Shown here: one piece after another, positions 33,405-34,771 of the stretch
Layout: every line of letters starts with the position of its first letter
How positions within the stretch are numbered: position 1 is the first letter of the stretch
Source of the DNA: an uncultured bacterium
GTDB taxonomy: Bacteria; Auribacterota; UBA3054; JAPLST01
Direction of reading: 5' to 3'
Length of the DNA: 64,000 bases
Assembly: GCA_964397565.1 (NCBI GenBank)
Contig: CAYNJC010000007.1
Location: 5,005-69,004, forward strand
Notes under the pieces: model-generated
What the model saw: the letters and a program-made list of their open reading frames with translations, nothing else
Databases searched by the model: none
Told to the model about the DNA's origin: nothing
Position numbers and translations under genes: made by a program

Positions 33405-34771
33405 ACAACGTGCCGCGCGTGACGCTCAAGCCGGGCAAGGCCAAACCATTTTGGTGCGGCCACCCGTTGGTCTTCTCCGGCGCGGTGCAGTCGGTTGACG
33501 CCGGCATTGAGACCGGCACGATCGTGGCCGTGCGGGATGCGCACGGGACCCAGATCGGGTTGGGGGTTTTCAATACCCATTCGCAATATCGGGTGCGCAT
33601 TCTCAGCCGCGCGGCGGCGGGGGAGTGCGATGCGACGATCGAGAGTTTTGTCGCCCGCCATCTGCGTGACGCCCGTGCCCTGCGCCAATTGCTGCAACTG
33701 CCGTCCGCAGCCACCAACGCATACCGCGTGTTGAACAGCGAGGGCGATGGCTGCTCCGGCCTGACGATTGACCTGTATGGCGACACCGCGGTCGTGGCGT
33801 CGAGCGCCTATTGGACTGAACAGAACCGGGCGGTGATCACGCGCGTGATCCAGGCGGAGCTGCAACCGGCCCAGGTGCTCTGGCGCCCGGTGCATCGCCC
33901 GCTCGAACAGGACGGTTGGAGCACCGAGTCCGCTGGCCTTGCCAGTCCCGCCATCGGCGGGATGGGAGCGGCCTCCGCGCCGCGATCTGCCACTGCATCA
34001 CCGGATGCCGCCGACGCCCACATTGCAGAGGCAGGGTGCGTCAGCTGCTTGGAGTCCCGCCAACGGCGGGATGATCAGTGCATCGGTGCGTCAGTATCTG
34101 CAACTGAAAACCAAAAAACGAAAACTGAAAACTTCGCCGCAGAAGCGCCAGTGCTGGTGCGCGAAAACGGATTACAGTTCACCGTTGATCTGCACGGTCA
34201 GAAAACAGGATTCTACTGTGATCAGCGCGACAATCGCGCCTGGCTTGAAACCCTGGCGCGCGGGCGCACAGTACTGGATGCATTTTGCTTCACGGGCGGT
34301 TTTGGACTGTATGCCGCGCGGGGTGGCGCGACGCGCGTGGTGGGCGTGGATTCGTCCGCACCGGCCATTGCGTTGGCGCGCAAAAATGCGGCGGCCAATC
34401 AGGTCGGCATCGAGCTGTACTGCGCCGACGTGCTCGAATATCTGGGCACGGCACGCGATTTTGACACGATCATTCTTGATCCGCCGAAACTGGCGGGCAC
34501 GGCCGAGCATGTCACCCGCGCGCTGCGTTATTATCGCCATTTGTGCGGGCTGGCGTTGCGGGCGTTGCGGCCACCGGGCATGCTGGTGGTCTGCTCCTGC
34601 TCCGCGGCACTGGGCTTTGAGGCCTTGCAGCACGTCATTCGCGAAACGGCGGTCGAAGAGCAGCGCACGGCGCAGATTGTGCGCGTCAGTGGCGCGGCGC
34701 CGGATCATCCGGTCTTGCCGGCCTTTCCGGAAGGCCAGTATCTGACCTGTGTCTGGGTCGCGGTCAGCTAG
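33401..34771 (+). CDS. rlmI: class I SAM-dependent rRNA (cytosine-C5) methyltransferase, RlmI-like, with ~60-70 aa internal insertion
   Basis: The N-terminus reads [23 protein letters not shown] (PUA-like). The MTase core reads [14 protein letters not shown]...[26 protein letters not shown]...DTIILDPP...HPV..[9 protein letters not shown]. The protein is 456 aa against about 396 aa for E. coli RlmI (from memory). ATGA overlap with nifS. Confidence 0.85.
   Translation: [456 protein letters not shown]
33945..34132. repeat. repeat-module composite embedded in-frame in the rlmI-like CDS
   Basis: Modules: H palindrome GTCCCGCCATCGGCGGGAT (33945-33963); 32-nt block TCAGCTGCTTGGAGTCCCGCCAACGGCGGGAT (34041-34072; 30/32 identical to 27441-27472); V word TCAGTGCATCGGTGCGTCAGT (34075-34095); W array CTGCAACTGAAAACCAAAAAACGAAAACTGAAAAC (34098-34132). 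Confidence 0.85.

Follow-up and report, generated by a model that had tools for sequence, protein, structure and literature searches.

How does a conserved rRNA methyltransferase come to carry, between two of its domains, a long loop whose coding DNA looks like the repeat-rich intergenic DNA around it? This question is raised by a 64,000-nucleotide (nt) stretch of the genome of an uncultured bacterium, here called the window, in which an open reading frame (ORF) for an RlmI-like protein contains such a segment. All coordinates are window positions, and L-numbered loci are contigs from other genomes or metagenomes. Based on sequence comparison and structure modelling, we consider it highly probable that selfish or neutral repeat DNA has settled in an inter-domain loop of a functional RlmI-type methyltransferase, and that it is translated there as a disordered and unconstrained loop.

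A predicted RlmI/RlmO-type methyltransferase with an enlarged loop

33401..34771, + strand: gene for a predicted RlmI/RlmO-type rRNA (cytosine-C5) methyltransferase of 456 amino acids (aa), with PUA, central and class I S-adenosylmethionine (SAM) methyltransferase domains
33920..34150, + strand: loop-coding segment S174-P250, 77 codons versus 12-16 in insert-free relatives, a predicted disordered loop

The 456-aa protein matches Pfam PUA_3 (PF17785) over residues 7-70 (E 1.9e-18) and Methyltrans_SAM (PF10672) over residues 250-417 (E 2.6e-16), and among solved structures E. coli YccW/RlmI is the closest (PDB 3c0k, E 7e-51). An AlphaFold model with a mean predicted local distance difference test score (pLDDT) of 80.8 was compared by Foldseek with 3c0k (E 3e-36, target-normalised TM-score 0.88) and with Thermus thermophilus RlmO (4dmg; E 1e-34, target-normalised TM-score 0.91), and has the three-domain fold of both. 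The residues of the DPPK motif (D360, P361, P362, K363) and C400 are invariant across 14 homologs in the protein alignment. Taken together, the Pfam domains, the match to 3c0k, the predicted fold and the invariant DPPK and C400 residues point to an RlmI/RlmO-type PUA-domain methyltransferase, for which methylation of 23S rRNA at C1962/C1942 is predicted. A previous reading of this DNA, made without database searches (the sequence-only reading), had called the enzyme "essential-type"; going by E. coli rlmI mutants, RlmI is not known as essential.

The alignment with 3c0k falls into two blocks (query residues 6-152 and 251-449), leaving 98 residues unaligned here (153-250) versus 36 in E. coli (147-182). 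The figure of about 25 residues that the sequence-only reading gave for the E. coli loop agrees neither with these 36, as left unaligned by HMMER, nor with the approximately 17 counted by eye.

The loop is a mosaic of dispersed repeats

33933..33945, + strand: small hairpin CTGGC-CTT-GCCAG, the left end of a composite repeat termed 'HG', seen when HG copies and ortholog DNA are aligned
33946..33962, + strand: H hairpin copy 1 (H1), TCCCGCCATCGGCGGGA, with a 7-bp stem and a 3-nt loop, within the HG composite
33964..33986, + strand: G hairpin, GGGAGCGGCCTCCGCGCCGCGAT, similar to repetitive extragenic palindromic (REP) elements; repeat family D13
33987..34021, + strand: 'tail' of HG, CTGCCACTGCATCACCGG..., common to L006 and similar to L109 5283-5305
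34022..34044, + strand: array-like segment ATTGCAGAGGCAGGGTGCGTCAG, homologous to AATGCCAGCGACAGAATGCGTCGG of L007 (read directly from DNA alignments)
34045..34071, + strand: H element copy 2 (H2), the 27-nt unit CTGCTTGGAGTCCCGCCAACGGCGGGA, present in decayed form in L006
34072..34095, + strand: 7-8-nt array units TGATCAG TGCATCGG TGCGTCAG T, common to four close orthologs; family I19
34102..34133, + strand: heptamer array CTGAAAA/CCGAAAA, period 7, 4.6 copies, common to four close orthologs

A low-complexity segment between a PUA-like part and the methyltransferase core, made of modules otherwise seen in intergenic DNA, had been described in the sequence-only reading. The segment is present in the 456-aa ORF as described, and its matches to intergenic repeats of the window lie far above chance. 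The H pattern TCCCGCC-NNN-GGCGGGA occurs at 33946-33962 (the palindrome previously placed at 33945-33963), 34055-34071 and 27455-27471; with up to two mismatches allowed, the H palindrome has 6 matches versus 0.57 expected. The 32-nt block 34041-34072 is indeed identical at 30 of 32 positions to 27441-27472, 3' of tRNA-Leu (E 5e-8; family D16). A word given as 34075-34095 was recovered as 34072-34095 and matches the reverse complement of 16822-16845 at 23 of 24 positions, while the array claimed at 34098-34132 corresponds to the period-7 array at 34102-34133. With at most one mismatch, AAACTGAAAAC occurs 8 times versus 0.49 expected. The G hairpin had been missed; its relatives within the window are at 53431-53453, 53488-53511 and 36891-36914 (- strand), with further copies in L109, L098, L057 and L202.

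Arrays of period 7 or 8 are found in intergenic DNA throughout the window (16310-16370, 16815-16860, 27299-27322, 27472-27534, 31434-31456, 34775-34860, 51953-51976 and 60521-60551), the first two of which belong to the same motif family as 34072-34095. Among the window arrays, only that in rlmI sits in the middle of the coding sequence of a confident gene. The combination of the small hairpin with H, G and the tail is seen again at L109 5215-5305, L098 700-790, L057 310-400, several metagenome loci and window 53411-53511, and the left part of the insert is one copy of this larger HG composite. The insert as a whole is assembled from at least four repeat families, rather than being the single repeat element that had been proposed.

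In-frame length variation among orthologs

The search for orthologs covered 5.8 billion proteins and gave four close ones:

P0002, L006 (Lac Pavin metagenome-assembled genome (MAG) JAPLST01): 442 aa, 87% identity to the window protein
P0003, L007: 420 aa, 83% identity
P0004, L008: 423 aa, 82% identity
P0005, L011: 412 aa, 64% identity

Lengths of 389-400 aa are usual in many further relatives, whose identity is 50-55%. In the protein alignment, which delimits the insertion, the interval from W173 to V251 holds 77 residues in the window protein versus 12-16 in these insert-free relatives, so that the in-frame insertion first put at 60-70 codons amounts to 62-65 extra codons.

DNA alignments resolve the insert into layers. 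About 70 nt of 7-8-nt arrays (34072-34132) are common to the four close orthologs, a further ~130 nt (G, tail, 34022-34044 and H2) are common to the window and L006, and 39 nt with the small hairpin and H1 are found in the window only. H1 is without counterpart in L006, L007 and L008; H2 is without counterpart in L007 and L008, whose 7-8-nt array runs uninterrupted, and the segment 34022-34044, which has its homolog in L007, would be older than the H2 insertion. L007 keeps the small hairpin (as CTGGC-CCAAT-GCCAG), with H1, G and the tail missing; L006 keeps G and the tail, with the small hairpin and H1 missing. Because L007 and L006 retain complementary remnants, deletions from a fuller ancestor are suggested.

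The genes of the five alleles are 1371, 1329, 1272, 1263 and 1239 nt long, each differing from the others by a multiple of 3 (81 nt plus 27 nt between the window and L007). Extra codons per allele number 12, 21, 22, 36 and 62-65. The insert appears to have grown and shrunk several times, in each case by a multiple of 3 nt. The genes next to rlmI are almost free of indels when these genomes are compared (one for a TPR protein of 1288 aa is without any gap of 4 aa or more), and hypervariability is therefore specific to the RlmI loop.

Selection, disorder and constraint on the loop

The ratio of nonsynonymous to synonymous substitution rates (dN/dS) is 0.07-0.09 in the core of the gene for all ortholog pairs, and 0.07 for the window versus L006. 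In the loop, by contrast, it is 1.3 for the window versus L006 (62 codons) and 0.44-0.76 for other pairs, indicating that the enzyme is under selection and the loop peptide is not. In the AlphaFold model, pLDDT falls below 50 exactly at residues 178-247, whereas the flanking domains score 85-97; the insert is thus predicted to be a disordered loop between confident domains. Orthologs, predicted disorder and purifying selection confined to the core all agree with the sequence-only reading, in which repeat DNA entered a surface loop of the methyltransferase and is tolerated there.

Several observations weigh against an insert that is simply neutral and selfish. The presence or absence of the long loop conflicts with the core tree, since L006 is sister to L008 (core dS 0.17) but shares its loop with the window (core dS 0.54 for window versus L006). 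Third-position differences between the window and L006 number 4 of 47 in the loop versus ~28% in the core, and the overall loop distance of 0.2 compares with a dS of 0.54 in the flanking core. Such low divergence is unexpected under pure neutrality, and calls for an allele that was transferred recently, for gene conversion or for nucleotide-level constraint. Translation of the loop is predicted from the conservation of its frame and its freedom from stop codons.

The L006/L008 comparison is itself a mosaic, with a third-position divergence of 4% in codons 1-150 and ~31% in columns 151-300. Given the excess similarity of window and L006 in the loop, and this mosaic divergence, we suggest an exchange of alleles through homologous recombination in the region of the loop, with gene conversion or nucleotide-level constraint as the alternatives.

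Constraint of the latter kind would be the case if the insert were kept for a function in DNA or RNA, for example as transcription- or translation-pausing hairpins, or as a recombination or binding site. It would fit with the loop DNA of the window and L006 being more conserved than synonymous sites whatever the codon position, with RNA 33915-34145 folding better than shuffled sequence (z = -2.86, H1 pairing with H2) and with the H copies of the window being perfect palindromes. Nevertheless, we regard a function of this type as unlikely: 3 of 5 orthologs are without most of the insert and have equally conserved cores, the H2 copy of L006 has three stem-breaking changes, the same modules are scattered over unrelated intergenic sites and other linkers (see below), and the low divergence probably stems from recombination, as the mosaic pattern of L006 versus L008 indicates.

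Quite unlikely, too, is that the segment is an adaptive lineage-specific linker or extension of the protein, i.e. a gain of a functional domain that might tune ribosome binding. Its location, with the RNA-binding N-terminal domains on one side and the catalytic domain on the other, would suit such a role, as would its being in frame in all alleles. However, its dN/dS is about 1, it is predicted to be fully disordered, its length and sequence differ in every lineage, and its peptide is set by DNA repeats read in whichever frame they landed.

Reading frames of the repeats

Read directly, H is free of stop codons in all six frames. H1 and H2 are in different phases in rlmI, and H copies elsewhere are translated in further frames, antisense included, one of them reading IPPVAGLQAA. 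These readings do not bear out the alternative, raised in the sequence-only reading, of an element selected to be open in one frame, and it was rejected. Other copies do lie in coding sequences (DsbD-like and lipoprotein-like, see below), in no single frame. The earlier remark that both loci of the 32-nt block share one reading frame is literally correct but trivial, the second ORF (27326..31393) being an over-extended 1355-aa call that overlaps tRNA-Leu (27347-27428). Between this tRNA and the signal-peptide-like RILLVALFWACG of the same ORF, the sole canonical in-frame start is a TTG inside H (27449); other options are CTG (27527) or ATC (27545).

This carries a warning for annotation. As the repeats are stop-free in all frames, and a number of them include start codons, they lead gene callers to make ORFs too long, which is seen in the 1355-aa call across tRNA-Leu and at the start of an M14 peptidase gene. 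The latter ORF is apparently over-extended by 34 codons (36889-36990), where an inverted G holds ATGCGCGAC and is read as 'MRDTEVAP'. A G hairpin is present at the site orthologous to the M14 peptidase start region in L006 (13905-13931), and the inverted G in a DsbD linker of L202 reads 'MRGTEAAP'.

Frame conservation also bears on whether the segment is part of the mature protein at all. It might be an intervening sequence that is taken out of the RNA or of the protein, or the mark of a pseudogene or split gene, given that its DNA resembles typical intergenic DNA of this genome and that its inverted-repeat potential recalls rRNA intervening sequences. We consider this very improbable. The frame is preserved in five alleles, which by chance would have a probability of ~(1/3)^4 if frame were irrelevant, and the frame in use stays open across the loop, so that no stop codon is introduced, as the sequence-only reading had stated. 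All four close orthologs have CCGAAAA or CCAAAAA as the heptamer unit that could otherwise bring TGA into frame, strong purifying selection acts on both halves of the gene, and intein or intron signatures are absent. As for an assembly chimera, repeats are a classic cause of misassembly, but the probability here is close to nil, as the identical 456-aa protein is found on 10 contigs that come from several runs and from two assembly pipelines, ENA (MEGAHIT) and Logan, and parts of the same insert occur in relatives from other, independent MAG or metagenome assemblies.

H as a discrete insertion unit

27445..27471, + strand: H copy between genes, within the heptamer array that follows tRNA-Leu on its 3' side; the 'filled' site

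The tRNA-Leu flank of the window has CTGCTTGGAGTCCCGCCATCGGTGGGA between GGTTTTCAG and TTTTCGG. The orthologous flank in both L006 and L008 is empty, with an uninterrupted array and a clean 27-nt gap in the alignment. At least 24 H-bearing loci from MAG JAPLST01 are among the 96 matches listed in a hairpin scan of GTDB genomes, and 99 stretches in Joint Genome Institute (JGI) metagenomes match the H pattern (28 nt with 27 specified bases, i.e. H plus one 3' T). In-silico removal of the 27 nt restores a period-7 array of at least 21 nt across the junction in 47 of 108 distinct copies, versus 1.65% of 2000 random control sites. The period is 7 in 46 of the 47 array-embedded copies, and the array motif varies by locus (TTCAGGG, TCATCAT, GTTTTAGG, TGATCGG and others). 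The H stem shows compensatory variants (TACCGCC/GGCGGTA, TGCCGCC/GGCGGCA), while its loop varies freely. From these comparisons H appears to be a discrete 27-nt insertion unit.

Direct tandem repeats of H with a 34-nt period (27-nt H plus the heptamer TCAAGGG) are found at L120 12684-12779 (3 copies) and at L137 6052-6181 (4 copies).

A fixed 5' target tetranucleotide, as in IS200/IS605-like elements, was considered since the window copies follow TCAG, but was rejected, as the left flank varies across ~85 copies (...AGGG, ...TCGG, ...TCAT and ...AACT). A 13-14-nt target-site duplication was likewise rejected: the direct repeats on either side of H belong to the in-register array that it interrupts, and because excision of the 27 nt leaves an array in correct register there is no target duplication. 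As a single hairpin, H does not have the terminal inverted repeats and target-site duplication of a miniature inverted-repeat transposable element.

The 20-mer AGTCCCGCCANCGGNGGGAT matches many phyla in the GTDB genome scan. A cross-phylum link between hairpin and heptamer array was rejected, an array flank being present in 1 of the 69 out-of-clade matches listed versus 0.9% of control sites, and the out-of-clade matches to the 20-mer are terminators, tRNA-Asn-like sequences or chance. The sole array-flanked match among those 69 is at L043 4053-4072 (a deltaproteobacterial MAG), where the same 20-nt hairpin lies inside an ATCCAGT heptamer array. Degenerate tRNA-Asn-like sequences of Methylococcales, Thermodesulfobacteriota and Ignavibacteria have the identical hairpin, TCCCGCC-NNN-GGCGGGA, where the anticodon arm would have its 5' half (L082 7474-7493, L077 29-48 on the - strand, L059, L044, L080, L035, L017 and L091). 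According to ARAGORN, a true tRNA-Asn(GTT) lies roughly 90-370 nt from the hairpin in L082, L077, L059, L044 and L080; the program finds no tRNA-Asn in L035, L017 and L091, and does not call the degenerate hairpin-bearing copy a tRNA. The same hairpin is part of an 86-nt tandem repeat with 12 copies at L049 4247-4868 (an Uhrbacteria MAG, with tRNA genes on the same 8 kb), and 3 hairpin copies spaced by 357 nt lie beside two tRNA-Pro genes at L101 3546-4280 (a Chitinophagaceae MAG).

A gene for a REP-associated tyrosine transposase (RAYT) was not found in the window by tblastn with an approximate RAYT query. The H-bearing contig L195 contains an ORF with an HUH-like motif that matches Y1_Tnp at E 1.3e-4 (22.5 bits, below the curated cut-off of 23 bits) and the approximate RAYT query at a tblastn E of 4e-12. 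Within L195 5700-7050 this Y1_Tnp/RAYT-like ORF (~6160-6624) has on both sides tandem clusters of a ~120-nt repeat with GC-rich hairpins, which are REP-like and of a different family from H and G; the single H copy on the contig is at 2105-2131 on the - strand. A Y1 (IS200/RAYT-like) transposase is a candidate mover of H, as a lead rather than a link.

More tentatively, H may be a 27-nt mobile hairpin of a lineage resembling the Planctomycetes-Verrucomicrobia-Chlamydiae (PVC) group, inserting precisely and without duplication into any heptamer array, the arrays and H being self-propagating and invading linkers (RlmI, DsbD, lipoprotein-like) to make hypervariable disordered segments. This wider proposal is possible, but we would put it on the doubtful side.

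Repeats in the linkers of other proteins

The repeats of the rlmI loop recur within other coding sequences. A DsbD-like protein on L202 has DsbD_N (34-131), DsbD_TM (251-459) and thioredoxin (480-565) domains, and its linker between DsbD_N and DsbD_TM contains, all in frame, an array, H, 7 nt, H, an array, an inverted G, an array and another inverted G. A lipoprotein-like family (L057, L064, L102, L065, L119) has antisense H in its N-terminal linker, in PITD-type arrays just past the signal peptide, read in two frames that differ by member. The RlmI loop of the more distant L011 contains a third dispersed family, AAATCCCCC..CCCCCTTTnnnAAAGGGGG, of the form AAATCCCCC-NN-CCCCCTTT-NNN-AAAGGGGG. 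Given this different repeat in L011 and the repeats in other linkers, the RlmI loop is a site that admits repeats and that different ones have entered independently. Further candidates for H inside coding sequences (L134, L160, L182, L124, L151, L110, L197) were set aside and left uncounted as ambiguous or as read-through of non-coding DNA.

A proposed history of the loop

A loop of inserted repeat DNA could have arisen as follows. A 7-8-nt tandem array, like those in the intergenic DNA of this lineage, would have joined the loop-coding region in the ancestor of the four close lineages. As such arrays would be the preferred landing sites of H, which inserts precisely and without target duplication, the array may then have gained H and the larger HG composite (small hairpin, H, REP-like G and tail). 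Later deletions, and probably allele exchange by recombination, would have led to the present alleles, with selection acting only on upkeep of the frame and avoidance of stop codons. Both the order of these events and the part played by recombination are inferred.

This is a well-resolved natural case of small repeat DNA entering a conserved enzyme and persisting there. Both domains are under purifying selection while one loop collects at least four repeat families, and this same loop has a different length in each relative's lineage and another repeat family in a more distant relative. Repeats in the linkers of other proteins suggest a general route to the evolution of disordered linkers in this lineage. 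With its 27-nt size, clean filled and empty sites and array preference, H is a good subject for the study of very small mobile DNA outside the cyanobacteria.

Other repeats in the window

53411..53511, + strand: intergenic composite (H-like hairpin, G, spacer, G), like insert positions 33933-34021
36891..36914, - strand: intergenic single inverted G hairpin, conserved at the orthologous position of L006

Directly 3' of the rlmI stop codon, 34775-34860 consists of two arrays, (GGAAGAAT)n followed by (ATCACTG)n, the second of which overlaps the final codons of a convergent ORF (34843..35331, - strand). At 16296-16872, inverted 7-8-nt arrays (51-nt arms, 75% complementary) bracket a gene for a 23S rRNA-intervening-sequence protein (~16330-16797, - strand; PF05635, E 2.8e-27, with a bAvd-like match too), which is AT-richer than its surroundings and lies between two complete Rnf/Nqr subunit genes; the whole looks like an inserted cassette. 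A 300-nt direct repeat with 84% identity (40172-40471 and 41452-41751, 1280 nt apart, with shorter matches at the same spacing) probably represents tandem paralogous genes.

Host lineage

The nearest named relatives of LigA are from a Chlamydiota MAG (65%) and from Omnitrophica, Gemmataceae and Sedimentisphaerales (~53%). Because these belong to the PVC group, the host is probably an uncultured PVC-group lineage of stratified lakes, Lac Pavin included. A cyanobacterial affinity, hinted at by plant RlmI-like matches, was unsupported by LigA.

Comparison with known repeat systems

One source (PMC10969869), which summarises work of 2000 and 2002, describes Rickettsia palindromic elements (RPEs) as palindromic repeat units of ~100-150 bp with a conserved peptide, found in frame in protein genes. 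The repeats studied here are similar in being dispersed palindromes of coding and non-coding DNA that lie in frame in unrelated housekeeping genes, at positions compatible with the fold; the fold of the RlmI host is predicted to be intact around its in-frame insert. In contrast to RPEs, described there as ~100-150 bp and read in one frame, the units are hairpins of 23-27 nt and arrays of 7-8 nt, stacked in a single loop, and because they are read in several frames they encode no conserved peptide. Their host, instead of Rickettsia, belongs to a PVC-like lineage that is uncultured and free-living.

H also has a counterpart in the small dispersed repeats (SDRs) of Nostoc and Anabaena, which Elhai et al. 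in 2008 (Genome Res 18:1484, a reference given in PMC3116915) reportedly found embedded in tandem heptameric repeats. Nostoc SDRs are said to be hairpins of 21-27 nt that are present or absent at orthologous loci, have no obvious target duplication, and typically lie inside tandem heptamer arrays whose sequence varies by locus. H shares a 27-nt gap in orthologs, a 7-bp stem with a 3-nt loop, and embedding in heptamer arrays. It differs in that its host is not cyanobacterial, that its sequence family is probably another one, and that arrays and elements here are also inside coding linkers.

REP/REPIN elements are mobilised by RAYT (Y1) transposases (PMC3116915). The repeats described here resemble them as short GC-rich imperfect palindromes with high copy number and compensatory stem variation. 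As to inverted doublets, G forms inverted pairs in L057 and L098, and H is single or in direct tandem, with no inverted doublets. The copy at issue, unlike REPINs, lies within a gene. Cyanobacteria and xanthomonads have tandem repeats of heptanucleotides, STRR among them (PMC4692102). The arrays of the window show the same pattern as these, but have other motifs (CTGAAAA, GGTGCGTC, TTCAGGG and others), and one of them is in the middle of a coding region. Set beside these systems, the rlmI loop is a clear new example of a known phenomenon, selfish DNA within protein-coding genes, which is RPE-like but has smaller units and no conserved peptide.

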